Positions 20,511 through 36,051 of a stretch of 64,000 bases of DNA are shown here, in pieces. This DNA comes from an uncultured Acidobacteriaceae bacterium. Lineage in GTDB: Bacteria > Acidobacteriota > Terriglobia > Terriglobales > Acidobacteriaceae. The first letter of the stretch is position 1; the number at the start of each line of letters is the position of its first letter. The notes below the pieces were generated by a model. The model saw nothing but the letters and a program-made list of their open reading frames with translations, ran no database searches and was not told the DNA's origin. The DNA lies in NCBI GenBank assembly GCA_963800145.1, contig CAWCZX010000003.1, positions 9,880-73,879 on the forward strand, written 5' to 3'. A program made the position numbers and the translations under genes.

Positions 20511-23500
20511 CTATTGCCGTGCGACGGTAGTTGTACCCTGGACGGCAATCTTTCCATTTCGAAATTCGTCCCCGGTTTCCTCCATGGCGCGTAACAGCGC
20601 GGGCCAATCGTCGATGTTGCTCGCGAAAATGTTGGCGATCATTCGGCGCGTCAACGTGGGGACCAGAACGTTAAGCATCACTGGGGAATCGCCCATCTCA
20701 TCTGCGAGGCGTGCCCAGTAAAGGTTATTGGATTGCCAAGATTCGGCAAGGAGCCTGCTGGCGTCCCCCCCGAAAGCGGGAACTGGCTTCATGTTAAAGA
20801 GTGCGCAGGAGTTACCTTGCACAAACGCCGAATGCGGCACACCGAAGTCTCTCGATATTCGGTCTGGACTGACATCGGACGGACTTCTCCGCGAGAGTTC
20901 GTCCAATTCGCGGCCCGCAGGTCCCCACGTCGAAGCCTTGTCTGAATACCTTTTCCGAAATTCGACAGCAAGATAGAAAGTGTCAGCAGGGGGTGTTTGG
21001 GGAACGAGTGCATTGGCGCTTTCCGGACTCCGAAGAGCCTCCTCAATCCTTTCCATCCAGTCCGGTGTCATGCGATCGGAGAGAATTTCTATCACCTTAG
21101 CCTTCAGATCAGGGTTGGAGACGGAGGATGTGAGTAGCTCTTCCCCGAGGCGTTGATAAAGAGCAACAGAATGCAGTTCGTTTCGGGATACGTCCCACCA
21201 ACGAGGCAGGACTGCGCTCACCAGAAGATCTGGTACAGTTTCCCTCCAGATCAGGGCCTGGACATTCTTCGGAGCGATGAATTCCTCTTCGGTGGACGCA
21301 AGCGCATACGGCAGATCGGCAAGTGAACCCATCAGATAGGCGCCGCCCCCGGCTGTAGCGCCAACGCCGATCAGATTCGGAACACCCCATATCTGCTCGA
21401 CCCCTTGAACCGAAAGAGACGAGAAATCATGTGAGCGGACGAAGAGTGGATTGTTGTGAAGAACCTCAGCTCCCGGGGGTTCATAATAGGCGTAATTTAG
21501 TCCAACCAATGTATCTCGCAGAAACGGAGTGAGTTGGCCGCGTGCGGCTTCAAGCTGCGATGGCGAGCCCGGAGAGCGAATGATCTTGGTCAGGTCCGTT
21601 CGTATCTGCAATTCCGCATGGCGGCTGACGTAGATCAAGGGAGACCACGAACTCCTCTCACTTCCGGTGAAAATGGGGCGTGGCATCTCGAATTCCCGCA
21701 GGTCTCCTGCAAGCAAGAGCATGGTGTTGCCGACCGGTGCTCCGTGCGCCATATCAGACAGCCCGTCGTAGAGCCCGAAAAGGGTATCGAGGGAAACCAA
21801 TCGCTGGTCATCCAGCACCGCTCGGATTCTCGCGGCCAATTCCCGATGCACGCGTTGAGCGTCCTGACCGTCCTGAGTTGGGCCCGCCAGCAGATCGACG
21901 ACCTGATCCTGGGTCAGATTTCCGCTTCCCGTCGCCGCGAGCAGGAGCGATTGGAGCGAACTCCTGGCCGCGCCGAAGAGCTGTACAGACGAAGAAATCC
22001 CGATAAACGGCTGAACCGCACCCTGCCATGATGCGTTCAATCGCTCATTCGGAATCTGGCCCTGGTGGGCTAGTATCCGCCAGAGTCCGATATTTGCTTG
22101 AAACGCTCCGAGGGCATTCGCGCGCAACGGGGAACTCGAAATCCCATTGATTCCATCGGCAGCGCTTACAAATCGGTCGATCGATGCATCATCCAAAGCC
22201 GGAAAATCAGAAAAGATTGGGAACCAGTGTTCGAATTCGGAGAACCTGCGGGCGATCAACTGCTCAGTTTCGCCGGACAAATGTCTTGATGAGGGCCTTC
22301 CGGCATCAATTGCACTCAGCAGCAGGAAGACACGCATCGGGGTGGCGGGCATCTCAAGATTTGAAGACGCAACCAGTGCTTCGAGCAATTGCTCCGAGCT
22401 ATCGCAACAATGGGCCCACGTTGCCCACTCTCGCATTTCGTTCCGTTTCGTTCCCTGGGAAAAAATTTCCTTCCAAACTTCAAGCCCCCCCGGAATCGCA
22501 ATATCCCCGCTCGCATCCCATTTCAGAGATGTGAGCAGTATCAGGAGTCCAGCATTCTTTGGAAAAACACCATATGCCGCATTAACATTCGGCGCAGTCG
22601 ATCGATAGGCATTGAAAAGTCCCGCGAGACGAGATCCTTGGACGAGGTGGGCCTGCTGGGCTTGGTTCAAGCGCGTCTCGACGTCAAAATAAGCAGCCAG
22701 CCAGCCGCGATCCTTCGTTAGCAGGTGGATCACGAACTCCCCGGGCGAGTTTGGATTTGCACCCACCAGTTCCTCCCAGTCTCTGTGGGCGCCGGCAGGT
22801 ACCACTACTTTCCCGGAGCGGATACTTATCCCGCTTCCGTACAAATCAAAAACAGTTGCGAGGGGCATCAATCTCTTTAGCCCAGGTGAGCGCACCAAGG
22901 CGAGCCTTGTTTCGCGATCGCACTTGGCGAGAGCCCCATAAAGATGATCCAGGTTTTGATCGTGAAGCAGCATGTCGAGAAGATCGGTGCCTGGTTTTCT
23001 CTTCCATGTCGTGACCGCCGTCCAGGTCTTCTCTTTGAAAAAGATCGGGACCCGCGTGGCAGGAAAGGAGTAGGTAAACGGTTCATTCCTTTGCAGGGCT
23101 TGTTCCAGCGCAGTGAGAGGGAAGCCTGAATCGATGGTCAGAAACGCCCGCTCCGGATTGGCAGTCGCCAGGGCGGTGTTTTTCTGTCCACAAGGTCGCT
23201 CAAACTTGTACCCGAGAACCTGAATCAGGCGGCCCGCGTCTTCGCAACCCGTCACGCGAATTGTGCCGGTCTTATCCGCCAGGAGCTGCAATTCTCGGGA
23301 CTGGTGCACATAACGATCCACGAGCACAAGGTACTCGGTTTCCTTCCCGTACTCGAAGCCGTGGAGGGAAACGTTGCGAGCCAGCATGGGCAGCAAATCG
23401 CCGGGAGAAACCTCCTGACTCAATCCGGCCATGCGAAGGAATGATCGCAACGGGCCGGGAATCACAACGGTATCCGCCGGCGATTGCGATGGTTGGTCTT

Positions 23501-23633
23501 CGGGATCTTCCGCCTGCACGCCGACTGAGTTGGAGCTCGAATGCGGCAATGCGTTGACATGGACCGGGCAGCAGGTTCCGAGAAACAAGAGATCTGCTAC
23601 GCAGATGATCCGAGAGAAAAGCGGGAACTTCAT
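20511..23633 (-). CDS. Large (~1040 aa) helical protein of unknown function, probably exported; co-transcribed with the VWA gene
   Basis: Long uninterrupted ORF with a hydrophobic N-terminus after ATG 23633; no motif recognised. Confidence 0.65.
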   Translation of the reverse strand: MKFPLFSRIICVADLLFLGTCCPVHVNALPHSSSNSVGVQAEDPEDQPSQSPADTVVIPGPLRSFLRMAGLSQEVSPGDLLPMLARNVSLHGFEYGKETEYLVLVDRYVHQSRELQLLADKTGTIRVTGCEDAGRLIQVLGYKFERPCGQKNTALATANPERAFLTIDSGFPLTALEQALQRNEPFTYSFPATRVPIFFKEKTWTAVTTWKRKPGTDLLDMLLHDQNLDHLYGALAKCDRETRLALVRSPGLKRLMPLATVFDLYGSGISIRSGKVVVPAGAHRDWEELVGANPNSPGEFVIHLLTKDRGWLAAYFDVETRLNQAQQAHLVQGSRLAGLFNAYRSTAPNVNAAYGVFPKNAGLLILLTSLKWDASGDIAIPGGLEVWKEIFSQGTKRNEMREWATWAHCCDSSEQLLEALVASSNLEMPATPMRVFLLLSAIDAGRPSSRHLSGETEQLIARRFSEFEHWFPIFSDFPALDDASIDRFVSAADGINGISSSPLRANALGAFQANIGLWRILAHQGQIPNERLNASWQGAVQPFIGISSSVQLFGAARSSLQSLLLAATGSGNLTQDQVVDLLAGPTQDGQDAQRVHRELAARIRAVLDDQRLVSLDTLFGLYDGLSDMAHGAPVGNTMLLLAGDLREFEMPRPIFTGSERSSWSPLIYVSRHAELQIRTDLTKIIRSPGSPSQLEAARGQLTPFLRDTLVGLNYAYYEPPGAEVLHNNPLFVRSHDFSSLSVQGVEQIWGVPNLIGVGATAGGGAYLMGSLADLPYALASTEEEFIAPKNVQALIWRETVPDLLVSAVLPRWWDVSRNELHSVALYQRLGEELLTSSVSNPDLKAKVIEILSDRMTPDWMERIEEALRSPESANALVPQTPPADTFYLAVEFRKRYSDKASTWGPAGRELDELSRRSPSDVSPDRISRDFGVPHSAFVQGNSCALFNMKPVPAFGGDASRLLAESWQSNNLYWARLADEMGDSPVMLNVLVPTLTRRMIANIFASNIDDWPALLRAMEETGDEFRNGKIAVQGTTTVARQ

Positions 23634-24232
23634 TGGGAATACCCCCCGGTCAGCGATAGCCTCAGACGGCTCGCTGAACGCCCTGGACTTACATGGGCAA
23701 CCAAAGGTCAATAAATGCGATGGTTATCTCGTCAGCACGATACTTGGACGACTTCGACCAACTTGCAGCAAAACGCTAGGGATTCACGACCTCAGTGGGA
23801 GTTACCTGCGGGAGAGCCACAGGGCCCTCGAATTTGCGACCTTCGTTCAGAGACATGCCGGCGGTTCAGGCGACGTTGGGGAAGTCGCGCTCACCGGTGC
23901 ATCATCATCGCAAATCTTCATTCGTCAGGCAAGTCATTCGGCGGGAAGTTCGGGGTGTCCGTCCAAAACGTCTGCCATTTGAGATGGAAGTGGCGACTTG
24001 TTGCGCCGGCACGCAGATTGGTTCGACCCCGGCAATCACCTATAACCCATTTGATATGTTCATTTAATGGAAGATGAGCCAAGTGTTTTCCCCTTAGGCG
24101 GGGAACGGCTTGCGGGTTTGCGCGTTGCACCACACCAGCAGACGCGAACTGTGGGAGTCGAGAATCGTACCTGCGGCATATTTTGCAGCGGCGATTTATT
24201 TTAGCCAAGGGCCCGACAACCCCGCTCCATGT

Positions 24233-25693
24233 CTACCCGGCTACTTGTTTGAGATCGGCGCGCTTGTCTTCGTAGGTCATGGAATAGGCAAGTAGATTTG
24301 GATCAGGTTCAGTGCCCCAATATTGGCAGGCGGCCTGGTACACGTCCGGCCACCAGTTGTGGTGGGCAGTGAGGCCGTCCTGTTTCCATTTCTTCCAGTC
24401 GACCAAAATCTTCGACCATGCTCGGTCACCAAATTCCATCGCTTCCACTTGAGTGCCAATCTCGGGTACGATCCACTCGCGTCCGATTTTGGCATGCAGA
24501 ACTTCGTCCGCCCAGTCATAGTCCTGAATTAACGCAGTCAGCGGATTTGCCGTGGCCATGGCCACTTCCCACTCATACTCCTTGCCGATCTTCCTGGGCA
24601 TAAGCCCCTGCTCGATCGTGAACAAGACAGCATGGCGCTCTTTTCGCGTCAGCATGGTATTCAGGCCCATTGACCAGGTAAAGTTGAACGGGATCATAGT
24701 CCAATCGATTCCCATAGAGACAAATCCAACTTCACCCATCATGGCGTGGCGAGCCTCATCCCAGAGTTGGCGTGTCATGTCGCGGTAATATCCCCAGGGC
24801 TTGTCGCGAGCTTCCACAATGATGCTTGCCATCATTTCAGGCACGTCGATTTCGCGCATGCGTTTGAAATAGAGCATGATCGTTTTGGGAAGCGGTTCGA
24901 TGCCCGGATCGAGAAGCATAGCTTCTGCATTGACGCCCATATTGTAGGGATCCTGGAATCGCGCATCGCGGTGCGGAACAGGGTCATATGTATAAGGAAC
25001 CGCGGAGGTTTTTCGCGCCAGGAGCTCCCCGGTCGGTTCCCTCTTCCCATCCAGGTCGCCCGCGGCAGCGAGCATGCGATCGAGCAGGTGAAGCCACTCG
25101 TGAAACTCTGCGCGCTGCTCATCCTTCACCAGGCACCGGGTCGCTTCGATTCCGTATTGCTGTATGTCTTGTATCTCGAGAAGTGTCAGGCGGCAGATAC
25201 GCCACGTAGGGTGATCGAAAAGCTTGTTCGTGTCGGCCATCAGGTTCTCAAGCGCGCGGACGAGGGCCGGCACCGCACACTCATACAAGCCCGAAATCAG
25301 CATTTCGGTGTTCGGCGCAGACAATATTTCATCGAAGAACATGTCAAGAGAGTCGTGAGGACAAACCTCTAGCCCATAGGGCGGTTGTCTCATCTCCTTT
25401 ACGCGCACGGCAAACTCGCCCACATGCTCCACGCAGTAGTGGGCATGCAGACTGAAGGCCATCTTCAATTCATAAAACGGCATGCTCGTAATGCGCGACA
25501 CAAAAATATGGTGGAGACGATTGAGAGACCAATGAATACGCTTCAGGCGCCCGACTGATTCGTTGACAGTCAATCCGGTGGAAACGACTTCGCGCATGGA
25601 ATGCAGGCCGACCAGAGGAGGAAGACCATCAAGGCCCTTATAGGAATCAATAGTGTTGATTGACGTGCTTGCATCGTTTCCGTTCTGTGTCAT
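24233..25693 (-). CDS. Ferritin-like diiron protein (DUF455-like C-terminal domain plus an N-terminal ferritin-like domain)
   Basis: EIDVPE, YYRDMTRQLWDEARH and DYDWADEVLHAKIG give two ExxH ligand motifs; the N-terminal half has VEHVGEFAVRVKEM. Strong GAAGGAGG RBS, 59 nt after the corrinoid gene stop. Confidence 0.65.
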   Translation of the reverse strand: MTQNGNDASTSINTIDSYKGLDGLPPLVGLHSMREVVSTGLTVNESVGRLKRIHWSLNRLHHIFVSRITSMPFYELKMAFSLHAHYCVEHVGEFAVRVKEMRQPPYGLEVCPHDSLDMFFDEILSAPNTEMLISGLYECAVPALVRALENLMADTNKLFDHPTWRICRLTLLEIQDIQQYGIEATRCLVKDEQRAEFHEWLHLLDRMLAAAGDLDGKREPTGELLARKTSAVPYTYDPVPHRDARFQDPYNMGVNAEAMLLDPGIEPLPKTIMLYFKRMREIDVPEMMASIIVEARDKPWGYYRDMTRQLWDEARHAMMGEVGFVSMGIDWTMIPFNFTWSMGLNTMLTRKERHAVLFTIEQGLMPRKIGKEYEWEVAMATANPLTALIQDYDWADEVLHAKIGREWIVPEIGTQVEAMEFGDRAWSKILVDWKKWKQDGLTAHHNWWPDVYQAACQYWGTEPDPNLLAYSMTYEDKRADLKQVAG

Positions 25694-25752
25694 GGCGAAT
25701 GCCTCCTTCAGTTACATCCTGCAAATGGACGACCCGCGGGATCTGAGCTCGG

Positions 25753-26385
25753 TCATCCGATCAGGCTCCTGACCAGGCCAACCGCGCCGCTGGCATTTTC
25801 GCTGTATCCGTCTGCACCAACCTCTTTGGCGTACTGCAAAGTGACCGGAGCGCCGCCAATCAAAACCTTCACGCGGGTACGCAGACCGGCGGTCTGCAGC
25901 GCTTCAATGGTGGTCTTCATGGCCGGCATGGTCACGGTGAGCAGCGCAGACATGCACACAATCTGCGGCTCCTGCTCGGCCACCGCGGCCACAAATTTTT
26001 CAGGTGCAACATCGGTGCCGAGATCGATCACATCGAATCCGCTTCCTTCAAGCATCGAAGCAACAATGTTTTTACCGATGTCGTGCAGGTCGCCCTTCAC
26101 TGTGCCGATGACTACTTTGGCAGACAGCTTCTCGCCGGCAGCCACCATCAACGGCCGCAGCACCTGCATCGCGCTCTTCATTGCGCGGCCTGCCAACAGG
26201 AGTTCCGGAACAAAATATTCCTCCTGCTCAAAAAGCCGTCCCACTTCGTCCATCGCCGGCACCATGGACTCGGCAATCAGCGCCATCGGTTCCGTGCCAG
26301 CTTCGATTTCTGCATTCGTTGCTGCAAGCGCTTTTTTTGCATCACCATTGAGAATTGCTTCGTAGAGTTCCTTGGATTGAGCCAT
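25753..26385 (-). CDS. Stand-alone corrinoid (cobalamin-binding) methyl-carrier protein, MtbC/MttC/MtvC-like
   Basis: B12 cap domain (MDEVGRLFEQEEYFVPELL) plus the DxHxxG motif GDLHDIGKNIV, SALL and IGGAP. Confidence 0.92.
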   Translation of the reverse strand: MAQSKELYEAILNGDAKKALAATNAEIEAGTEPMALIAESMVPAMDEVGRLFEQEEYFVPELLLAGRAMKSAMQVLRPLMVAAGEKLSAKVVIGTVKGDLHDIGKNIVASMLEGSGFDVIDLGTDVAPEKFVAAVAEQEPQIVCMSALLTVTMPAMKTTIEALQTAGLRTRVKVLIGGAPVTLQYAKEVGADGYSENASGAVGLVRSLIG

Positions 26386-26452
26386 GATTCACCTGCCAAA
26401 TGGAAATGCCGCGGGAACAAGTCAAACAACAAGCTGCATTATCAACACCGCC

Positions 26453-27478
26453 TCATGCGTTCACATGAGCTGAGCGGTCGCGAGCGAAGTTCACCATTGC
26501 ATCTACGTTTTCGTGGGGCGTATCGCGTACGATCTCGCATCCCGCAGCGATGATCCATTGTTCACCCACTTGTTGCCGGAGCACTTCAAGCGATTTCATG
26601 ATTGCTTCAGGAGATCCATTGCGCACGTCCCTCACCGGGTCCAGATTCCCTGCCAGGGTCTGTTGCGGGCCGGTCTGGGAGCGCGCTAGGTCCATGGCTA
26701 CGGGATAATCAATATCCACCAAGTCGCAACCCAGCTTGCCCAAGCCTTGGAGAATTCGGCGCGTATTCCCGCAGATGTGAAGACGGACTTTTGCCCCGCC
26801 GGCATGGATGGAGTCAACGAGTTTTTTCTCCCACGGCCACACAAATTCGTTGTAAATGCGTGGGCCCACCAGGGATGCGGCGGCATCTCCGATCCCAATA
26901 ATGTCTGCGCCAGCTTTGATCTGCGCGGACGCGAACCGAACCGCAATTTCCAGGGTGAACTCGAACAGATCTTGAACAAAGGCAGGGTCGTCGGAAAAAT
27001 CGATCATCAACCGGCTGATCCCGCGCAGGTCAGCAGCTTCGGCACAGGGGCCTTCCACCCAGCCCTCGACGAATAGTTTTTCCCCTGCATACTTCCGCAA
27101 CAGTTCGACTCCCCTGATGCGGTCTTCCATGCGTCCCCCAAGGATCGCGCCGGGAATTTTCAGTTGAGCAAGAACCGACTTTTCCTGCAAAAGCGCTTCT
27201 TCTTCGACAATCCCCGGAGGCCGGTCTTCATACCACTGGATCTTAGCGCCCAGATCAGTTGCTTCGCGGGTGGGGTCCGAGATCGCCGAGACATGGTCGA
27301 AGCCAAACATTTCGGCCGTCTTGGCCTGTGCTTCCGCCAGAATTCTGTAATCCCGGACATACTGCGCGTATTTGACGCCAAGAATATCCGCGGCAAACAT
27401 CATGGTGATGGGCATGCATGGAATGCGGTCAGTCTTTTGCCCGGCAAGAATTCCGAGAACTCGTTCGCGACCTGTCAT
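26453..27478 (-). CDS. UroD-fold corrinoid methyltransferase (MtaA/CmuA family)
   Basis: MTGRERV N-terminus, DPTREATDLGA, VEGPCAEAADLRG, GADIIGIGDAAAS, and the Zn-site pattern LHICG...AGCEI (H-x-C...C). Start may extend to 27511. Confidence 0.85.
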   Translation of the reverse strand: MTGRERVLGILAGQKTDRIPCMPITMMFAADILGVKYAQYVRDYRILAEAQAKTAEMFGFDHVSAISDPTREATDLGAKIQWYEDRPPGIVEEEALLQEKSVLAQLKIPGAILGGRMEDRIRGVELLRKYAGEKLFVEGWVEGPCAEAADLRGISRLMIDFSDDPAFVQDLFEFTLEIAVRFASAQIKAGADIIGIGDAAASLVGPRIYNEFVWPWEKKLVDSIHAGGAKVRLHICGNTRRILQGLGKLGCDLVDIDYPVAMDLARSQTGPQQTLAGNLDPVRDVRNGSPEAIMKSLEVLRQQVGEQWIIAAGCEIVRDTPHENVDAMVNFARDRSAHVNA

Positions 27479-27816
27479 AGCGTGCACGTTCATTTCAGAG
27501 ACGGGCGCCAACCCTCGGCTTTGCTTTTATCCGACGAGATATATGGGGCAAGCATCCGCCGCAATTGTGATCTTAGTTGCAAGCACCTCAACGATAGTCC
27601 AGAAGACCCACGGGTGTCCTGTCTTTGGTTGAAGAATTTCAAATTCCCGCTGACGGACTGGCAAGTTATTTACCACCGCCGAAAACCGTGAGAATCAGCC
27701 CCAATCTGCCGCTGCCCTCATTAGATGTTCGAGCGTAGAATTGCAGCTGCGTTCCGGCGGAATCATTGCTTCGATTTATCCTGTCCCCGGACAACGATCT
27801 ATCGGCGGGGAAAGTC

Positions 27817-28557
27817 ATGCGCTTTAAACTGATTAGCTGCCAGGTTCTCACCCGAGAAATCAGCTATCTTCTCGCCCGCTCACCTCACTCGATTGCGCCG
27901 GAGATCCTGACCATGGGGCTGCACGACCTAGGCGCTTCGATGCGCCCCTTTCTGCAGGAGAGGATTGATGCCGCGGATGGGGAAGGCTACGACGCGATTC
28001 TACTGGGATATGCGCTCTGCGGTAGAGGTACGGAGGGCCTGCGCGCGAGGAAGACGCAGATCGTCCTTCCCCGGGCACACGATTGCATCGGGTTATTGAT
28101 GGGGAGCCGTTCACGCTATCAGGCCTATTTCGATGCTCATCCCGGCGTTTACTTTCGATCCCCCGGCTGGCTTGAAAATCAAGGTCCGGGTGAAATTCTT
28201 CAGCCTGCCAATTCCTCAAAGCAGAACACGATTGGAGAACGCCGCAGCCGCGAAGAACTCATCGCGCAATACGGCGAAGAGAACGGAAACTATCTTTTTG
28301 AGCAGTTCAATCTCTTTCGTCGCCATTACTCAGGGTTGACCTATATCTCCACCAGTGTTGGACCGGAGGACGCCTATCGCAATCAGGCCCGTGCTGAAGC
28401 GGAAAAAGAGGGATGGGCGTTTGATGAAATCAAGGGCTCACTCACCCTGCTCGAACGGCTTGTCAACGGAGAGTGGAACTCCGCGGATTTTCTTGTCATT
28501 GGTCCCGGCCAGACGGTGCAGGACGTTTTGGGCGAGCCCGCCGTGGAAGCGATATGA
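27817..28557 (+). CDS. DUF1638 domain protein (commonly found beside corrinoid activation genes)
   Basis: SCQVL, GLHD, YDAILLGYALCGRG and PRAHDCIGLLMG; ATGA overlap with the downstream ASKHA gene. Confidence 0.8.
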   Translation: MRFKLISCQVLTREISYLLARSPHSIAPEILTMGLHDLGASMRPFLQERIDAADGEGYDAILLGYALCGRGTEGLRARKTQIVLPRAHDCIGLLMGSRSRYQAYFDAHPGVYFRSPGWLENQGPGEILQPANSSKQNTIGERRSREELIAQYGEENGNYLFEQFNLFRRHYSGLTYISTSVGPEDAYRNQARAEAEKEGWAFDEIKGSLTLLERLVNGEWNSADFLVIGPGQTVQDVLGEPAVEAI

Positions 28558-30050
28558 GCGCTGAGACGGTAAGGATTCGGCTGGAGCCGCTGTCGACAAC
28601 GGTCGAAGTGCCTTGGAATAGTTCGCTAAAGTCTGCGCTCTGCGTGCACGGGGTCGAATTTCCATGCGGGGGAATAGGTATTTGCGGTGGTTGCCGTTTT
28701 CGAGTTCTGGCTGGAGAGCTTCCGGTGACCGGGCAGGATGTTGCTGTCTTCTCGGCGATTGAGCTTGGCGACGGATGGCGGTTGGCCTGCCAGGCGCGCG
28801 CCGAGAGTTCCCTGGTGCTTGAGTGCAGTCAATGGAAAATGGACGTGCTGACCGATGATTCGGGCCTTTCCACCGCGGGAAAATCCGGGCTGGGAATTGC
28901 CATCGATCTGGGCACGACCACTGTTGCCGCGCAGTTGATCGATATGGCCACGGGCAACGTGCTCGCTGTGGAGACCTGCCTCAATCCACAAGCGTCGCAC
29001 GGCTCTGACGTGATGAGCAGAATCAAGGCAACCCTATCCGGAGTCGATCTGACGGCGTTGGTTCGCTCTGCAGTGGAGCAGATGATTGCAAAGCTGGCAT
29101 GCGGCCGCGAACAAGAGATCGTCGAGGTCGTTCTTGTCGGCAATACGGTGATGCATCATCTTTTTTGCGGACTTAATGTTGAGCCGCTCTCGCATGTGCC
29201 GTTCGAATCTCCTCACCCAGAAGTACAGGCCTTCGACTCCGGTGAACTCGGCTGGAAGTTGTCACGGGATTGCCGCGTGCGTTTTGCACGATGCCTCGGC
29301 GGATTTGTAGGTTCTGACATCCTTGCCGGAATGATTGCTGTCGGCATGCCGGTTTCAGTGGGCTTGATTGCGTTGATCGATCTTGGCACCAACGGAGAGA
29401 TCGCCATTGGCAATCATGATGGGATTGTCTGCGCGTCTACGGCGGCGGGGCCGGCCTTTGAAGCCGGTTCGATCCGCATGGGAATGCGCGCGGCGACGGG
29501 CGCTATCTCGCGTGTCTATCCCTTGCATGAGAGAATTTGTGCCGACGTAATTGGAGACGTAGACGCCAGGGGTATCTGCGGCAGTGGCCTGGTCGATGCG
29601 GTCGCAGTCGGGTTGCAAAGCGGGCGCATTCTGCCTTCTGGACGCATTGCCGGACAGACAAAGCTCTTTCCGATAAAGGATCCGGTCGTCCTCTACCAAT
29701 CGGATATTCGCGAACTGCAGTTGGCGAAGGGGGCCATCGCGTCCGGGTTCAGGCTCCTGCTTCGGCACCTGGGCACGAGCGCCGACCATCTGGAAAGCCT
29801 CTACCTGGCAGGGGCATTCGGCAATTACATGCAGATTGAAAGTGCCATTGGCATCGGGCTCATTGAGGCGCCTAAGCAGCGAATTCGCGCGGCCGGGAAC
29901 ACGGCTTTGCGCGGGGCCAAGATTCTGCTTTTGTCGGATGGTGAGCCATGCCTGCCGAGGATCGAACATATAAGTTTAGCCGCTGATCCTGATTTTCAGG
30001 ATGAGTTTTCCAGTTGCATGACGTTTCCCGAGATCGCGAGCGCAGTTTAA
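28554..30050 (+). CDS. ASKHA-family reductive activator of corrinoid proteins (RACo/RamA-like, DUF4445) with an N-terminal 2Fe-2S domain
   Basis: CGGIGICGGC...RLACQ 2Fe-2S motif; IDLGTTT, IDLGTNGEI, CASTAAGPAFE, GICGSG, LAGAFG and GNTALRGA. Confidence 0.9.
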   Translation: MSAETVRIRLEPLSTTVEVPWNSSLKSALCVHGVEFPCGGIGICGGCRFRVLAGELPVTGQDVAVFSAIELGDGWRLACQARAESSLVLECSQWKMDVLTDDSGLSTAGKSGLGIAIDLGTTTVAAQLIDMATGNVLAVETCLNPQASHGSDVMSRIKATLSGVDLTALVRSAVEQMIAKLACGREQEIVEVVLVGNTVMHHLFCGLNVEPLSHVPFESPHPEVQAFDSGELGWKLSRDCRVRFARCLGGFVGSDILAGMIAVGMPVSVGLIALIDLGTNGEIAIGNHDGIVCASTAAGPAFEAGSIRMGMRAATGAISRVYPLHERICADVIGDVDARGICGSGLVDAVAVGLQSGRILPSGRIAGQTKLFPIKDPVVLYQSDIRELQLAKGAIASGFRLLLRHLGTSADHLESLYLAGAFGNYMQIESAIGIGLIEAPKQRIRAAGNTALRGAKILLLSDGEPCLPRIEHISLAADPDFQDEFSSCMTFPEIASAV

Positions 30051-30127
30051 AGTGGCAATCAAGAACGACAGGAACAATTCGGAATGCACAAAGAAACAAT
30101 TGGACGGGATCGTAAACGGGTCGCAAT

Positions 30128-32398
30128 ATGACGATCAGTACCAGCCCACCGGTCATTCTCGACTACAGTCTCACCGGCCTGAACGCTACTCTCGCGGTGG
30201 AGAGAGGGCTGGCCGAGGCTGATTGGTACCAATGCGGTGTACCGCGAGAGACGATGCGCAAACTTCTCGAGCGGCGAAACGGTCCTGCAATCCGCGACAC
30301 GATGCTCTGGTTTGCGCTCATTCTGGGTAGCGGATTCGCCACCTATGTCTTGTGGGGCACCGGTTGGGCGATCCTGCCTTACTTTGTCTACAGTGTCCTC
30401 TACGCGTCAACATCTGATTCGCGCTGGCATGAAACTGGGCACGGCACGGCATTCAAGACAGACTGGATGAATAATGCGCTCTATGAGATCGCTTCGTTCA
30501 TGGTGATGCGCGAATCCACGGTCTGGCGATGGAGCCACAACCGGCATCACAGCGACACGATCATCGTTGGACGAGACCCTGAAATCGCTGTGCCGCGCCC
30601 ACCGGATTTGAAGGGCGTCATCCTCTCGTTCTTCAATCTCGGTGTATATCCGAAGTATTTCAAGCACATTCTTCTGCACTCGGCGGGACACATGACGGCT
30701 GCTGAAAAGACTTTCATACCCGAAATGGAATATTCCGCCGTATATTGCAGGGCGCGCGTTTATGTTTCGATCTACGCCTCGGTCATTAGTCTCGCCATCT
30801 TAAGCCGCAGTGTGCTGCCGCTGCTGTTTGTGGGATTCACTAACCTGTTCGGCACATGGCTTCTGGTTGTTTATGGGCTCACTCAGCATGCAGGTCTCGC
30901 AGAAAACGTCCTGGACCACCGTCTTAACTGCCGCACGGTGTACATGAACCCTCTTCACCGCTATCTCTACTGGAACATGAACTACCACGTTGAACACCAC
31001 ATGTTCCCGCTGGTCCCTTATCACGCACTCCGGAAGTTACATGATGCTGTGAAAAACGACTGTCCGACGCCCTATACAAGTCTCTTTGCTGCCTGGTGTG
31101 AGATCGCCCCAACCATTCTTAGACAGGTTAAAGATCCCGCCTATCACGTCAAGCGCCGTTTGCCCACCAGCTATGCTGCAGTCAATGCGCACTCTCACGT
31201 CTCCAACTCCGAACCCGACACTGCGGGCTGGGTGAGAGCGTGCTATCGAGGCGACCTGGTTGCAGCGGACATTATCCGCTTTGACCATGGCCGAAAGAGC
31301 TTTGCACTTTGCCGTGATGAGCAGGGCCGGCTTCACGCCATTGACGGAGTCTGCACGCACGGCAACACCCATCTTTCCGAGGGCTTGATCGTGGGAAATA
31401 TGATCGAGTGCCCAAAGCACAACGGACGTTTCAATCTTATCGACGGTTCGCCTGCCCGCGTGCCGATCTGCCGCGGAATCGCCACCTATCCGATAGAGGA
31501 AAGGGGCGAGCAGATCTATATCAACGTTGCGAACGCTCGCGGAGTCGGGGCGCGATCGCACAAGACTCTCCATTTCCGCGTCCTGAGCAATCAAAGCGTT
31601 GCCACGTTTATCAAAGAACTCGTTCTCGAGCCCCTGAATGACGCAGAACCCATCGGCTTTACACCGGGCGATTACCTGCAACTGGATATTCCCCGCTACG
31701 ATGCCATCCGCTTCAGGGACTTTAATATTCCTGAGCCGTTCGCAACGGTTTGGGAGCGTCAGCATGTTTTTGATCTGGTTGCCAGCAATCCCGAGGGCGG
31801 GCGCCGCAACAACTATTCGATTGCAAGTAATCAGTGGACCGAGCGCACATTACGCTGCAACGTGCGCATCGCGACTCCTCCGCCCGGGCAGGACTGCGCT
31901 CCGGGCATTGGGTCCAGCTACATCTTCAGCCTCAGACCCGGTGACCTCGTCTCTGGCATCGGGCCCTTTGGGGATTTCCATATCAAGCCGACATTACGCG
32001 AAATGGTTTACATCGGCGGGGGTGCGGGAATGGCCCCACTGCGCGCCCACATCTCACACCTTCTCGAGAATGAACGGACAGCGCGCAAGATCAGCTACTG
32101 GTATGGTGCGCGTTCCAGGCAGGAGGTTTTCTATCAAGAATATTTCGCTCAACTGGCCAAGGAGCACCATAACTTTGCATTTCACGTCGCCTTGTCCTCA
32201 CCGCAACCTGAGGACGAGTGGACGGGCCCCGTCGGTTTTATCCATGACGTCGTTCTGGAACAATACCTGATCGAGCATACTCATCCCGAAGCCTCAGAGT
32301 ATTATCTTTGCGGCCCTCCGCTGATGATCAAAGCATGCACGCGAATGCTTGCGAACCTGGGAGTTTCTGACCATCAGGTTTCGTACGATGAATTCTAA
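30128..32398 (+). CDS. Three-domain fusion: MocD-like fatty-acid-desaturase-family diiron oxygenase + MocE-like Rieske ferredoxin + NqrF-like FAD/NAD(P)H reductase
   Basis: His boxes HETGH, HNRHH and HVEHH with TM helices; Rieske CTH...CPKH; FNR motifs GDYLQL, RRNYSIAS, GPFGDF, IGGGAGMAP, YWYGARS, LCGPP and C-terminal YDEF, all in one frame. Confidence 0.88.
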   Translation: MTISTSPPVILDYSLTGLNATLAVERGLAEADWYQCGVPRETMRKLLERRNGPAIRDTMLWFALILGSGFATYVLWGTGWAILPYFVYSVLYASTSDSRWHETGHGTAFKTDWMNNALYEIASFMVMRESTVWRWSHNRHHSDTIIVGRDPEIAVPRPPDLKGVILSFFNLGVYPKYFKHILLHSAGHMTAAEKTFIPEMEYSAVYCRARVYVSIYASVISLAILSRSVLPLLFVGFTNLFGTWLLVVYGLTQHAGLAENVLDHRLNCRTVYMNPLHRYLYWNMNYHVEHHMFPLVPYHALRKLHDAVKNDCPTPYTSLFAAWCEIAPTILRQVKDPAYHVKRRLPTSYAAVNAHSHVSNSEPDTAGWVRACYRGDLVAADIIRFDHGRKSFALCRDEQGRLHAIDGVCTHGNTHLSEGLIVGNMIECPKHNGRFNLIDGSPARVPICRGIATYPIEERGEQIYINVANARGVGARSHKTLHFRVLSNQSVATFIKELVLEPLNDAEPIGFTPGDYLQLDIPRYDAIRFRDFNIPEPFATVWERQHVFDLVASNPEGGRRNNYSIASNQWTERTLRCNVRIATPPPGQDCAPGIGSSYIFSLRPGDLVSGIGPFGDFHIKPTLREMVYIGGGAGMAPLRAHISHLLENERTARKISYWYGARSRQEVFYQEYFAQLAKEHHNFAFHVALSSPQPEDEWTGPVGFIHDVVLEQYLIEHTHPEASEYYLCGPPLMIKACTRMLANLGVSDHQVSYDEF

Positions 32399-32488
32399 AA
32401 AGGCTGAGGACCTGGGTATGAGACAGATTCATTTGGACACAACGGAACATGGAGAGTGTTGTTTAAGCGGCTCTGACTTCGCGATCGT

Positions 32489-33088
32489 TTAAATTCCAGG
32501 TACAGGCGGGCACCCGGGGAACTCGGTTAGAAACGTGTTTCCCTTGTAACCCAAATACTTGATACCGATCTTGCTCGTGAAGAACCCGTCAGCGGTCATG
32601 TTCCTCAACAGCGAGAAGAAATCCACGGCGTCACGCAGGCTCTCGTCTTGTATTGCATTCTTGTTATAAGCGATCTGGTCGACAATCTCTGCCTGTTGTG
32701 GCGGTGCGCAATCGAGATAGGCCTTTCCGTACCGGCTCGAGCATGTTGAATCGAGCCACGTGAACCCGGCTCTCAATCTGGATTGATATTCCGCGTTCTC
32801 GCTGGTGAGCAGATCGATAAACTCCGGAGCACCAGCCTCAATCGCGCCACCGCATTCCGGGTCGGCCGGCAGAATGGTCTCGCACAGCGCCTGCAGCGTT
32901 TCGAATTGATGTGCCGCGAAGAACTTCGGAACATAGCCCCCTGCCTTGGGCTCTGCCCTTTCTGCCTCGATCAGATTGTGGGCGTATTCGGCAGCCTCAA
33001 GCGGGATGACTCGGAGGACCGAACCCGCCACCGCTCCGATGCTCAGTGATCTTAATACAGCGCGCCGTGTAATGGATTCTCGGGTCAT
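32489..33088 (-). CDS. Gluconate 2-dehydrogenase subunit 3 family protein with Tat signal (small subunit of a GMC sugar dehydrogenase)
   Basis: Twin-arginine SITRRAVLR; LCETILP...GAIEAGAPEFID; FFSLLRNMTADGFFTSKIGIKYLGY.GN. Confidence 0.85.
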   Translation of the reverse strand: MTRESITRRAVLRSLSIGAVAGSVLRVIPLEAAEYAHNLIEAERAEPKAGGYVPKFFAAHQFETLQALCETILPADPECGGAIEAGAPEFIDLLTSENAEYQSRLRAGFTWLDSTCSSRYGKAYLDCAPPQQAEIVDQIAYNKNAIQDESLRDAVDFFSLLRNMTADGFFTSKIGIKYLGYKGNTFLTEFPGCPPVPGI

Positions 33089-33097
33089 GCCTTTCGC

Positions 33098-34819
33098 TTA
33101 GAGCTCCCCTTTCTTTGCCTGGTCGAGCAAATACTCTGAGGTTCTCCACGAAAGGGCCATGATGGTCAGAGTGGGATTCTTATCCGGATTGGTCACGAAT
33201 GGAGCGGCGTCGGCCACGAACAGGTTCTTAACGTCGTGCGCCTGGCAATTGCTATTCAGCACCGACGTCTTTGCATCTTTGCCCATGCGAACCGTTCCCA
33301 ACTCATGAATGATTTCTCCGCCTCCCGCAATGCCGTTGGGCCGCGGTGCTTCGCTCTTTGGCAGCGGGTGCCGGCGCGTGCCCGCTATCACGGTCCCGCC
33401 TGCGGCTTCGACGATGGAGCGGAAAGTGGCCTGCATATCGGCAGCCATCTTCAACTCGTTCTCGCCTGCCTGCCAATGAAAGCGCAGCACTGGAATGCCC
33501 CACTGATCTTTCACGTTGGGGTCGAGTTCGCAGAAGCAGTTTTCGTTGGGGATCATCTCGCCTCGTCCGCTGAACCCAATAAACGTGCCGTAAGAGCTGC
33601 GGCACTTTTGCTTCAGGCCGATGCCATAGCCTTCTTGCTCTTCGCACACTCCGTCAAACCCGCCAACCCCCGGCATGTCGCGACCGCCGCCAAACTCGAT
33701 GTGATATCCGCGCAGGAAGTCGTTCTTCTTGCCGAACCGCCACCAGGGCATATACAGATGCATGCCGCCAACGCCATCGTGATTGTGCGCAGGCATTTTT
33801 TCAAGTTGAGGGAAGTACCCCGCGAGATCGCTACCCACCGAATCGGTGAGATAGCGCCCCACCACTCCCGATGAATTCGCAAGCCCATTGGGAAAGCTCG
33901 GCGAGCGTGAATTCAACAGCAGGCGTGCGGACTCACAAGCACTCGCCGCTACCACAACGGCCCTGGCATAGACGCGCTGTTCGCTCTTCGTCGGCTTGTC
34001 GATGTAGGAAACGGCCTCCGCTTTGCCGCTTTGGCCCAGCACGATTTCGCGGGCCATCGCATTGGGAATCATCGTCAGCCGACCGGTGGCGGTTGCTGGT
34101 GGAATCATCACCTGGCTTGAGCTGAAGTTGGAGGCGGATCTGCAGCCGCGTCCGCATTGCGCGCAGTAGTGACACGCGTCGCGGCCATTCAGGGGCTCGG
34201 TTAAAATGGCGAGCCGCGACGGGATGCACGTGATGTTCAGCTGGTCGCAAGCCTTTTTGATCAGGATCTCGGTGCAGCGCGGTTTAGGTGGCGGCAAAAA
34301 AACGCCATCCGGAGAATTGGGGATGTTCTCCTTCGATCCGAATACACCGATGTAGGCTTCGACCTTGTCGTAGTAGGGAGCCAGTTCCGCATAAGTGATT
34401 GGCCAATCGTCGCCCATTCCGTCAATTGAGCACGCTCTGAAATCTGCCGGCCCGAAGCGCAGCGCGATGCGCCCCCAATGATTGGTTCGGCCTCCCTCAA
34501 TCCGTGACCGGAACCAGCGAAACGATGAGCCGGGCGCCGTTGTATACGGTTCGCCTTCGATCTCCCAGAACCCGTTCGGTGCCATGAACTCGTTGCCGAT
34601 TCCGCGCTGTTTGCCACCAATACCCACACCGCGATGGGCCAGTTGATAGGGCCACACATGCTCCTTGAAATCCTTGTCCGGGTCGAGTCGCGGTCCGGCT
34701 TCAAGCATCACCACGTTTAGCCCACCTTCGGTGAGGACCTTTGCCGCGGTCCCGCCTCCTGCGCCGGAACCAATAATACAGACGTCAAAAACCTTCCTGG
34801 GCGGGTTCAGTTGGGCCAT
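33098..34819 (-). CDS. GMC-family flavoprotein oxidoreductase (glycoside 3-dehydrogenase-like large subunit)
   Basis: IGSGAGGG FAD motif, GGRTNHWGR, DDWPITYAELAPYYDKVE, CHYCAQCGRGC, HELGTVRMG and KNPTLTIMAL. Confidence 0.88.
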   Translation of the reverse strand: MAQLNPPRKVFDVCIIGSGAGGGTAAKVLTEGGLNVVMLEAGPRLDPDKDFKEHVWPYQLAHRGVGIGGKQRGIGNEFMAPNGFWEIEGEPYTTAPGSSFRWFRSRIEGGRTNHWGRIALRFGPADFRACSIDGMGDDWPITYAELAPYYDKVEAYIGVFGSKENIPNSPDGVFLPPPKPRCTEILIKKACDQLNITCIPSRLAILTEPLNGRDACHYCAQCGRGCRSASNFSSSQVMIPPATATGRLTMIPNAMAREIVLGQSGKAEAVSYIDKPTKSEQRVYARAVVVAASACESARLLLNSRSPSFPNGLANSSGVVGRYLTDSVGSDLAGYFPQLEKMPAHNHDGVGGMHLYMPWWRFGKKNDFLRGYHIEFGGGRDMPGVGGFDGVCEEQEGYGIGLKQKCRSSYGTFIGFSGRGEMIPNENCFCELDPNVKDQWGIPVLRFHWQAGENELKMAADMQATFRSIVEAAGGTVIAGTRRHPLPKSEAPRPNGIAGGGEIIHELGTVRMGKDAKTSVLNSNCQAHDVKNLFVADAAPFVTNPDKNPTLTIMALSWRTSEYLLDQAKKGEL

Positions 34820-35133
34820 CCATTCTCTCCGACTGCGAAAAAATATTCTTGAAACGGGGAAATCTGCAGTACTCGCTCCAGGCCAGCATCAGCGGGCATG
34901 TCTTGGTATTCACTTCGAAACACGCGCTTCTCTTTCTGATAATCGATCAATATACGCCCCGCGCCTTTACCCACGCGACGTTTTTCTCGCCCCCGATCCA
35001 GGGAAAGCGAAGAAGTTGCCAAAAGATTTCGGGAATCCTCTTGTTGTTCTCCAATTGACTTGACCGGGATTCCATTTGACACCCCGGTAATTTGTCCGAA
35101 ACCTCCACTCGACTTTCAGATAGAATCCTGCCT

Positions 35134-36051
35134 GTGACGGATGCGCTCTCACAAATCGATGCTCTTGATAAACGTTTCGGAATCTCCGGGATTGCCGAGG
35201 TGGTTCCTGGAAATGGCGGACTGCCGAAAGTGCGCGTCACCACGCGCTCTGCTTCGGCGGATATCTATCTGCACGGTGCACAGGTCACGTCGTGGCGGCC
35301 AGCGGATGCTGAAGAAGTGATCTTTCTCAGCGAGCATTCGTATTGGGAACATGGCCATGCGATTCGCGGAGGCATCCCGGTCTGTTTTCCATGGTTCCGA
35401 GCGAAGACGGACGATCCCCATGCGCCGGCTCATGGCGTGGTTCGAACGAAAGAATGGAAGCTTGACTCCATTGCTGCGGAGACAGACGGATCTGTAATTG
35501 TCAGTTTCTCAACGGAAAGCGATGAGTTCACGCGCCGTTGGTGGCCTCATGATTTTCGTCTGGTTCATCGTGTGTCAATGGGCAAGACGCTTCGGCTGGA
35601 GCTGACGGCGAAAAACGCGGGGTCCACAACTCTACGCTTCGAAGAGGCGCTGCATACGTATTTCCGGGTCGATCAGGTAGACAATGCACGCGTGCGGGGT
35701 CTGGATCAGGTCCAGTATCTCGATAATACGGATGGAAATCGCGAGAAGATTCAGTTCGGAGACGTGGTGTTCGCCGCTCCTATCGATAATGCATACCTCA
35801 ATACCTACGGTGCTCCGGAGTTAATCGATCCTGTCTTGCGCAGAACACTTCGCACCGATAAGGAAAATTCAGCAACCACGGTGGTCTGGAATCCCTGGCA
35901 GCAGGGCGCGGCCGCTCTCGCCGATCTTGGAAATGATGAGTGGCGACGCATGGCCTGCGTGGAAGCCAGCAACATACTTGGTGCGGCGGTTTCGCTGGAA
36001 CCAGGCGAAGAACACACGATGCGCGCAACAATTAGCGTTGCCGCGGAATGA
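35134..36051 (+). CDS. D-hexose-6-phosphate mutarotase / aldose 1-epimerase family (YeaD-like)
   Basis: LHGAQVTSW, AIRGGIPVCFPWF, HGVVRT, ALHTYF, VVWNPW and CVEA. Start uncertain (GTG 35134; ORF open from 35092). Confidence 0.88.
   Translation: MTDALSQIDALDKRFGISGIAEVVPGNGGLPKVRVTTRSASADIYLHGAQVTSWRPADAEEVIFLSEHSYWEHGHAIRGGIPVCFPWFRAKTDDPHAPAHGVVRTKEWKLDSIAAETDGSVIVSFSTESDEFTRRWWPHDFRLVHRVSMGKTLRLELTAKNAGSTTLRFEEALHTYFRVDQVDNARVRGLDQVQYLDNTDGNREKIQFGDVVFAAPIDNAYLNTYGAPELIDPVLRRTLRTDKENSATTVVWNPWQQGAAALADLGNDEWRRMACVEASNILGAAVSLEPGEEHTMRATISVAAE

Follow-up and report, generated by a model that had tools for sequence, protein, structure and literature searches.

Corrinoid methyltransferase and diiron oxygenase genes interleaved in an acidobacterial sugar-catabolic locus: a possible facultative toolkit for O-methyl-sugar demethylation

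Many sugars of plants, algae, mosses and microbes carry methyl ethers that block their catabolism. How such groups might be removed is the question raised by a locus in a 64,000-nucleotide (nt) stretch of DNA from an uncultured member of the Acidobacteriaceae, whose genus also includes a metagenome-assembled genome (MAG) labelled Terracidiphilus (the whole stretch is called the window below, and coordinates are positions in it). Six genes in two divergent operons, three on the minus strand and three on the plus strand, encode a cobalamin methyl-transfer module, a membrane oxygenase fusion and a ferritin-like diiron protein; the original prediction, made from the sequence alone, regarded them as a dual-route system that demethylates methylated sugars or cyclitols. 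The analysis described here supports the view that the fusion is a recurrent but facultative member of corrinoid methyltransferase operons and that the genomic context is consistently sugar catabolism. The parts of the locus are of known kinds. We propose, with confidence that is about evenly balanced, that together they form a facultative toolkit for O-methyl-sugar demethylation, which is composite and horizontally reshuffled. The features of the locus are as follows.

24233..25693, minus strand: 486-amino-acid (aa) tandem ferritin-like diiron protein, a predicted oxygenase
25753..26385, minus strand: corrinoid (B12-binding) methyl-carrier protein (PF02607 and PF02310)
26453..27511, minus strand: MtaA/CmuA-like UroD-fold methyltransferase, UroD_MT (PF01208, 194 bits)
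27512..27816, no strand: divergent intergenic control region between the operons, about 300 nt, from the UroD_MT start to the likely DUF1638 ATG
27766..28557, plus strand: DUF1638 (PF07796, 126 bits; likely start ATG 27817)
28473..30050, plus strand: RACo/RamA-type ATP-dependent reductive activase (PF00111, PF17651 and PF14574; likely start ATG 28554)
30051..30127, plus strand: 77-nt spacer between the RACo and fusion genes, the position of an additional divergent UroD gene in contig L110
30128..32398, plus strand: membrane diiron oxygenase fusion (MocD-like FA_desaturase, MocE-like Rieske and NqrF-like FAD/NADH reductase)

Protein families were assigned with Pfam and NCBIfam models, and NCBIfam scores were judged against the curated cut-offs. 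The neighbourhood of the oxygenase was surveyed in 80 species-level loci from GTDB genomes (10 kb either way) and that of the 486-aa family in 87 loci (60 of them with enough upstream sequence), and a family-level sample of 301 genomes was used for gene content. G000 denotes the index genome, to which the window belongs, C2 and C3 denote its other contigs, G020, G066 and G265 are sampled genomes, and L-numbers are the labels of comparison loci or contigs. All six products were identified as originally named: the leftward genes encode the MtaA-like UroD, the corrinoid protein and the ferritin-like diiron protein (by Pfam/NCBIfam, motifs and the AlphaFold (AF2) fold), and the rightward genes encode DUF1638, the RACo-type activase and the FA_desaturase/Rieske/FNR fusion (by Pfam/NCBIfam and motifs). 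The gene spacing supports two operons. The DUF1638 stop and the likely RACo start (ATG 28554) overlap as ATGA, the 486-aa gene begins 59 nt past the corrinoid gene with a ribosome-binding site (GAAGGAGG) 8 nt ahead of its ATG, and the fusion lies 77 nt past the activase, the spacer (30051-30127) being free of terminator-like hairpins, as had been claimed. In the intergenic region (27512..27816), no sigma-70-like consensus site was found and no regulator gene adjoins it.

The corrinoid module was examined first at the level of its parts. The best Protein Data Bank (PDB) match of UroD_MT was MtaA (4AY7; E=6e-21, full length), and its scores against the MtaA/CmuA subfamily models were 167-168 bits, under the cut-offs of 235-244 (for TIGR01463, 166.7 bits against 235.4). 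It carries a Zn-type HxC...C site (H245-I-C247 and C325). The carrier has the cap and Rossmann domains with a DLHDIG motif at residue 99 (D99xH101xxG), and scored 198 bits against TIGR02370, just below the cut-off of 215; it is the sole stand-alone corrinoid protein of G000, the only other B12 domain being in MetH. The activase consists of an N-terminal Fer2 (2Fe-2S) domain, the RACo middle domain and the RACo ASKHA domain, and is AcsV-like (266 bits; Cys65/71/74/106). Aerobes run corrinoid methyltransferases with RamA/DUF1638 (PMC5764234, PMC12478193): in Phaeobacter inhibens, a B12-dependent reaction requires a pair of DUF1638 and a RamA-like protein (PMC5764234), and in Ruegeria pomeroyi such a pair is induced with MtgBCD (PMC12478193). 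A second DUF1638 gene stands directly beside the corrinoid gene of L110, beyond the diiron gene (L110:9616-11071); thus DUF1638 may pair with individual corrinoid proteins. Two DUF1638 homologues (G020:C23:30254-31015 and G066:C7:185066-185725) have one in-frame TGA each, which could reflect a pseudogene, a sequencing error or recoding.

This module was compared with MtaABC of methanol users, with the aromatic O-demethylases found in acetogens and Desulfitobacterium, and with the MtgBCD system of aerobic Roseobacters, which includes RamA and DUF1638 (PMC12478193, PMC3727330). The window shares with them the corrinoid DxHxxG motif, an MtaA-like UroD, a RACo/RamA activase and DUF1638. Unlike these systems, it has one methyltransferase gene and no folate-side enzyme, its context is sugar transporters and glycosidases instead of methylamines, methanol or lignin aromatics, and two predicted O2-dependent diiron oxygenase genes are interleaved in the locus. 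The type 1 mlp clusters (Kountz & Balskus, PMC10418091) differ further: they have at least two Mlp paralogues (Mlp2 and Mlp3) where the window has a single UroD, occur in obligate anaerobes only (mostly Firmicutes) and not in an Acidobacteriaceae host with O2-dependent enzymes, were proposed to serve methyl-sulfur or methyl-selenide metabolism, and are devoid of DUF1638, oxygenases and sugar genes.

The substrate-side methyltransferase is probably encoded elsewhere than in the window, by the gene for a divergent 425-aa UroD (UroD425), for which no solved or curated relative was found. In G000, UroD425 lies on contig C2 with a major facilitator superfamily (MFS) transporter, between a gene of glycoside hydrolase family 88 (GH88) and a rhamnogalacturonase-like gene; in the relatives L110 and L024, it sits inside the operon. 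Contig C2 carries two further UroD-like genes (425 and 357 aa). The pectin-type operon there, L190 (C2:811000-828000), comprises a rhamnogalacturonase-like/SGL protein, an MFS, a 179-aa unfamiliar protein, the UroD-like proteins of 357 and 425 aa, a Sugar_tr MFS and a fusion of a beta-lactamase fold with GH88. Among the 301 genomes, UroD425 was found in G000 and G020 only, exactly those holding both the fusion and DUF1638; in G020, the three genes are on different contigs.

The Zn thiol-activating-type motif of UroD_MT would also suit a split methionine synthase or its reactivation, as in Phaeobacter inhibens, with no sugar role. We consider this explanation hardly credible. The MetH of G000 has S-methyl_trans, Pterin_bind and B12-binding domains and its own Met_synt_B12 activation domain (PF02965, 416 bits); the module is present in just 8 of the 301 genomes, and relatives place it among sugar transporters and glycosidases. 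MetH is itself encoded in two pieces, an S-methyl_trans gene and a Pterin_bind/B12/activation gene. Reactivation of MetH by RACo and DUF1638 was rejected because of the MetH activation domain, which argues that this pair serves the local corrinoid protein.

No CbiC, CobS or MetE was found in G000 (94%-complete genome). Since CbiC and CobS are lacking, G000 must scavenge corrinoids, and it looks like an obligate corrinoid scavenger; as it also lacks MetE, B12 is always needed and not optional, and the idea of a lifestyle independent of B12 was rejected. When the window, L110, L024, L084 and L073 were scanned with Rfam, no cobalamin riboswitch and no other family was found, so regulation as a B12-repressed backup is without support.

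The fusion combines PF00487 (112 bits), PF00355 and PF00175 in one chain. The FA_desaturase (FADS) domain has three His boxes (HETGH, HNRHH and HVEHH), the Rieske domain has the CxH/CxxH motif (CTH...CPKH), and the FNR domain has RxYS, GGxGxxP and CGP. Public databases name the family 'Na+-transporting NADH:ubiquinone oxidoreductase subunit F', and its matches in the PDB are limited to NqrF FAD domains and dioxygenase ferredoxins. Fusion loci number more than 590. A genuine NqrF would be expected to have an N-terminal TM helix and a plant-type 2Fe-2S domain and to lie in an nqrABCDEF operon. The NqrF (TIGR01941) identity was rejected: the match (330 bits, cut-off 295) is not full-length, covering fusion residues 482-756 and nqrF positions 131-403 only, and no nqr genes adjoin. 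Since the nqrF equivalog cut-off is passed by the C-terminal 275 residues alone, the name is a systematic mis-annotation. The FADS catalytic domain with intact His boxes was kept in all fusions examined, the hosts of which are Acidobacteriota, Verrucomicrobiota, Bacteroidota and Chloroflexota, and the genes lie in glycoside-hydrolase loci.

The nearest known arrangement is that of rhizobial MocDEF, the 'ferredoxin oxygenase complex' of rhizopine catabolism, which was proposed to demethylate 3-O-methyl-scyllo-inosamine oxidatively (Bahar et al. 1998, cited in PMC10107442). In both, an FA_desaturase-type membrane diiron domain is followed by a MocE-like Rieske ferredoxin, and rhizobial MocD-MocE proteins align with fusion residues 12-468 at 45-48% identity, with a separate reductase gene adjoining. 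The chemistry proposed for MocDEF, the oxidative demethylation of a methylated cyclitol or sugar, would likewise be shared. Unlike MocDEF, the fusion has all three parts in one chain, and its reductase is an NqrF-like FNR, whereas the rhizobial two-domain loci carry a separate Pyr_redox_2 reductase together with ABC sugar transport, LacI and a PanB-like gene. The window has no moc or inositol-catabolism neighbours, ABC sugar transport or LacI. The best Rieske model for the fusion was that of MocE (TIGR02377), but with 93.5 bits the domain is below the cut-off of 136.15 for membership of the MocE subfamily. Judged from its domains, the fusion is predicted to be a self-sufficient version of the MocDEF-type oxygenase.

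The third module, the 486-aa protein, is outside any described family (it is not in the DUF455, MiaE or AurF-type curated families). It gave no Pfam/NCBIfam match at E<0.01 and no meaningful PDB sequence match with either a single-sequence or a profile query. More than 7,104 homologues were counted, and clustering of the family at 50% identity gave 950 clusters. The residues E286, E313xxH316, E361 and E397xxH400 are invariant across 31 sequences, down to 25% identity. The AF2 model (predicted local distance difference test 91, predicted TM-score 0.90) has two helical lobes, and the diiron ligands are kept in the C-terminal lobe only; with Foldseek, it matched ferritin, Dps and bacterioferritin bundles only (best E 0.047; TM-scores normalised to the target 0.6-0.7 for Dps and bacterioferritin). 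The invariant E/ExxH/E/ExxH pattern, the model and the ferritin-type fold matches thus support the ferritin-like diiron assignment. In 6-7 relatives, a Fer2-FNR reductase gene lies directly downstream of the 486-aa homologue, the best NCBIfam models being flavohaemoprotein, GbcB, PaaE, BenC and MmoC (all sub-cut-off). G000 has a homologue of this reductase at C3:2030510-2031550, and L025 is one of the loci with such a partner. A reductase gene in that position is what usually marks a two-component oxygenase, and the most fitting reading of the 486-aa protein is a second oxygenase, a soluble one. Its four-helix bundle, ligand pattern and reductase in relatives resemble diiron oxygenases with PaaE- or MmoC-type partners; unlike these, it is a tandem two-lobe protein, and no reductase gene adjoins it in the window. 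The commonest neighbour of the gene is a divergent AraC regulator (14/60 loci), and its neighbourhoods repeatedly contain GH127, GH31, TonB receptors and an MFS sugar transporter. A class-III-like alcohol dehydrogenase and an esterase lie downstream in 4-5 loci.

Whether these modules belong together was examined by comparison of gene order. Contig L110 is 84-86% identical to the window in nucleotides across the cluster, with the order DUF1638-RACo-UroD425-fusion-Sugar_tr divergent from UroD_MT-486aa. Window positions 26480-30086 and 30107-32411 align to it, with about 20 nt between them in the window and 1.3 kb (UroD425) in L110; the corrinoid gene sits between the UroD_MT and 486-aa genes in the window but not in L110. 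L024 has DUF1638-RACo-UroD425-Sugar_tr with the fusion missing, and in addition UroD-corrinoid-MtaB-486aa-fucosidase. Thus, among L024, L110 and G000, the fusion is present or missing at one and the same operon position. In L024, the corrinoid/diiron cluster has a gene for a cytochrome P450 at a distance of 3 kb (L024:14765-16000), and G000 has an 87%-identical copy (C2:976798-978030); since P450s are the only proven sugar demethylases, this enzyme may be a fourth route.

Outside these close relatives, L084 (an Opitutaceae bog MAG) has UroDdiv-Sugar_tr-DUF1638-fusion-RACo-corrinoid-MtaB-UroD on one strand, L060 has corrinoid-UroDdiv-fusion...Pterin_bind, and L073 has UroDdiv-PanB-like-FADS/Rieske-corrinoid-Pterin_bind with no FNR domain and no RACo. 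One Chloroflexi-type clade joins the oxygenase and UroDdiv (L060, L073, L071 and L074), and UroDdiv adjoins the oxygenase in L067, L071, L074 and L105. The oxygenase tree requires at least three independent joinings with corrinoid genes. A corrinoid gene was found in the oxygenase operon in 3 of the 80 loci as independent cases, against 0.01-0.2 expected by chance (computed from realistic corrinoid-gene densities). The original prediction made linkage of the fusion to the corrinoid genes in other genomes one of the points on which it would stand or fall: the linkage exists at the operon level in at least three lineages, crossing phyla, and is missing from most loci and from all same-genus copies sampled, as detailed below.

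The remaining neighbours of the oxygenase agree with a sugar context and in part hint at formaldehyde or methylene-tetrahydrofolate (THF) handling. The commonest upstream neighbour of the fusion is aldose 1-epimerase (9/80 loci), and a Sugar_tr MFS is near it in 5 loci. A PanB-like paralogue adjoins the oxygenase in 17/80 loci (L073 (8851-9768), L071 and 15 alphaproteobacterial loci). The PanB (ketopantoate hydroxymethyltransferase) family uses methylene-THF, and this paralogue may capture formaldehyde as methylene-THF. FdhA (glutathione-independent formaldehyde dehydrogenase; 705-707 bits, above the cut-off of 637) is beside the fusion operon, between it and the 486-aa gene, in L027:2171-3367, L191:10940-12136 and L034:13217-14410; the G000 copy is far from the fusion (C3:2433992-2435185). 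In 13/80 loci (L030:12323-13321, L191:12197-13087 and 11 others), the fusion shows translational coupling at its 3' end with a conserved gene for a protein of about 300 aa, the start of which overlaps the fusion stop in L191; this gene has no Pfam/NCBIfam match and is absent from G000.

The flanks of the locus in the window also point to sugar catabolism, and the sugar dehydrogenase genes, aldose 1-epimerase, GH106, GH31 and FucP named at the outset were all found there, together with a TonB-type barrel and a lactate permease (36198-37877) that had been overlooked.

32489..36051: sugar-oxidation flank, Gluconate_2-dh3 and GMC oxidoreductase (minus strand) and aldose 1-epimerase (plus strand)
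51850-53184: FucP (score above the TIGR00885 cut-off)

Directly beyond the diiron gene is a 1,066-aa open reading frame (ORF) (20511-23711, minus strand), which has no Pfam/NCBIfam match and no tblastn match (E<1e-8) among the related loci screened, and which may encode an undescribed carbohydrate-active enzyme. A 417-aa ORF (50471-51724, plus strand) beside the TonB-type barrel and FucP has no Pfam/NCBIfam family.

Several observations weigh against the toolkit. Within 10 kb of the oxygenase, 73 of the 80 loci are free of both corrinoid and UroD genes; five fusion copies in four same-genus genomes have no cluster gene within that distance (0/5), and four same-genus corrinoid clusters are without both oxygenases. 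The carrier of a corrinoid system is expected beside two methyltransferases, and the window encodes a single UroD methyltransferase, with no MtaB and no folate-side partner; in the G000 genome also, no MtaB was found, and a pterin-binding methyltransferase occurs only in MetH. The fusion is in 10 and DUF1638 in 8 of the 301 genomes; two genomes have both, one being the index genome, and without the latter the co-occurrence is not significant (p=0.19). In favour of the toolkit, the fusion and the 486-aa family overlap (3/9 against 5-6/300 genomes, p≈2-4e-4), the two genes being 6.6 kb apart in G265 and relatives; note that these co-occurrence counts are small and ignore kinship, as no correction for phylogeny was applied. 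The FdhA adjacency is limited to one acidobacterial lineage (L027, L034 and L191), which weakens it as formaldehyde evidence, and the alcohol dehydrogenase and esterase behind the 486-aa gene match formaldehyde-pathway models only with scores far below the cut-offs. Finally, the function of MocDEF was itself modelled from genetics (Bahar 1998, cited in PMC10107442).

These observations bear on how closely the modules cooperate, as the three are separable and occur apart in most genomes. This separation would fit unrelated functions within a sugar-catabolic island, the corrinoid module serving a non-sugar one-carbon (C1) donor and the oxygenases hydroxylating or demethylating sugars independently. 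The donor could be methanol from pectin methyl esters: MtaB-family genes are present in the L024, L084 and G020 clusters, and in G000 the UroD425 gene belongs to a locus of pectin type, a setting in which methanol would be set free. However, G000 has no MtaB, the MtaB-like protein scores 391 bits against the cut-off of 720 for true MtaB, a sugar MFS is inside the corrinoid operons, and it is difficult to see why the genes should have been joined into operons independently in three lineages if they shared no pathway. We therefore regard unrelated functions as improbable.

A second explanation is redox support, in which the Rieske/FNR part or the diiron protein feeds electrons to RACo, or protects or repairs the corrinoid. 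The fusion adjoins RACo or DUF1638 in the window and L084, and the N-terminal 2Fe-2S domain of RACo requires an electron donor. Such a role is very unlikely for several reasons: the FADS domain with its intact His boxes is always kept, about 90% of the fusions have no corrinoid neighbour, L073 has FADS-Rieske with UroD, corrinoid and Pterin_bind genes but no FNR and no RACo, and the four same-genus corrinoid clusters mentioned above manage without the fusion. The alternative first offered with the dual-route idea, that the FNR/Rieske part feeds corrinoid reactivation, is for the first three of these reasons unlikely to be the main role.

The strict form of the dual route, in which the corrinoid relay and the fusion demethylate the same sugar and are switched by the supply of oxygen or B12, is doubtful in our view. 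In L110 and L084, one operon unites the fusion with the corrinoid genes and just one sugar transporter, the fusion comes and goes at the same operon position in L024, L110 and G000, and G000, without CbiC and CobS, depends on corrinoid scavenging. However, the presence of both routes in one operon argues against O2-dependent alternative regulation, no B12 riboswitch or other Rfam element was detected in the five sequences scanned, G000 without MetE needs B12 anyway, and RamA/DUF1638 corrinoid systems operate in aerobes. Thus, the dual-demethylation system as originally conceived is partly supported: a recurrent, facultative fusion in corrinoid operons with sugar transporters stands, but the linkage is absent from about 90% of the loci. 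The wider version, in which three unrelated O-demethylases act on the same methyl-ether sugars interchangeably according to the supply of O2 or B12, is held only tentatively. It is similarly a speculative suggestion that bog and soil Acidobacteria and Verrucomicrobia shuffle the three modules in and out of one operon; 2-O-methyl-fucose, 2-O-methyl-xylose or 4-O-methyl-glucuronate could be the sugars in that case. They would then be usable with or without O2 or B12, and the cobalamin relay, its substrate-side enzyme being a new UroD-fold family, would be the first corrinoid-dependent sugar demethylase.

For the facultative toolkit, we infer the following sequence of reactions from the gene identities and their context. 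Methyl-ether sugars would be released by the neighbouring glycoside hydrolases. UroD425 would pass the methyl group from the sugar to Co(I) of the corrinoid protein, and the MtaA-like UroD_MT would unload methyl-Co(III) onto an acceptor, which is likely a thiol because UroD_MT has the Zn-type site. Whenever the cobalt is oxidised to Co(II), RACo and DUF1638 would reduce it again and thereby keep the carrier in the Co(I) state. The operons of L060 and L073 may represent the complete relay, with UroDdiv acting on the substrate side, the corrinoid protein as carrier and a pterin-binding enzyme on the acceptor side; in Acidobacteria and Verrucomicrobia, an MtaA-like UroD would take the place of the pterin-binding enzyme. 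With NAD(P)H and O2, the fusion would hydroxylate the methyl group of the ether, and the resulting hemiacetal would break into free sugar and formaldehyde, as proposed for MocDEF. The 486-aa diiron protein would act as a second, soluble oxygenase, for which relatives appear to supply their own Fer2-FNR reductase. The three enzymes may all act on one substrate, or each may take a different methylated sugar of the same polymer.

The characterised precedent for sugar demethylation is the cytochrome P450s of marine Bacteroidetes, which demethylate 6-O-methyl-D-galactose and of which the structure and mechanism have been determined (PMC6292453). The toolkit as proposed resembles them in O2-dependent demethylation of methyl sugars with release of formaldehyde, and also in genomic setting, as the P450s are encoded in polysaccharide-utilisation loci. 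Unlike the P450s, which are haem-thiolate enzymes, those of the window are predicted to depend on non-haem diiron or cobalamin and are known from their genes alone. The literature searched contained no carbohydrate demethylases beyond the P450s (PMC6292453) and no report of corrinoid- or non-haem-diiron-dependent sugar demethylation.

If the proposal is true, it would explain the use of methylated pectin and hemicellulose sugars by abundant soil and peat bacteria. Cobalamin methyl-transfer chemistry would then reach carbohydrates in aerobes. It would also correct the widespread 'NqrF' mis-annotation, and would provide a testable function for three uncharacterised families, namely those of the fusion, of UroD425 and of the 486-aa diiron protein, the last with more than 7,000 members. 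B12 cross-feeding and the metabolism of formaldehyde and C1 units would thereby be tied to polysaccharide turnover in these bacteria.

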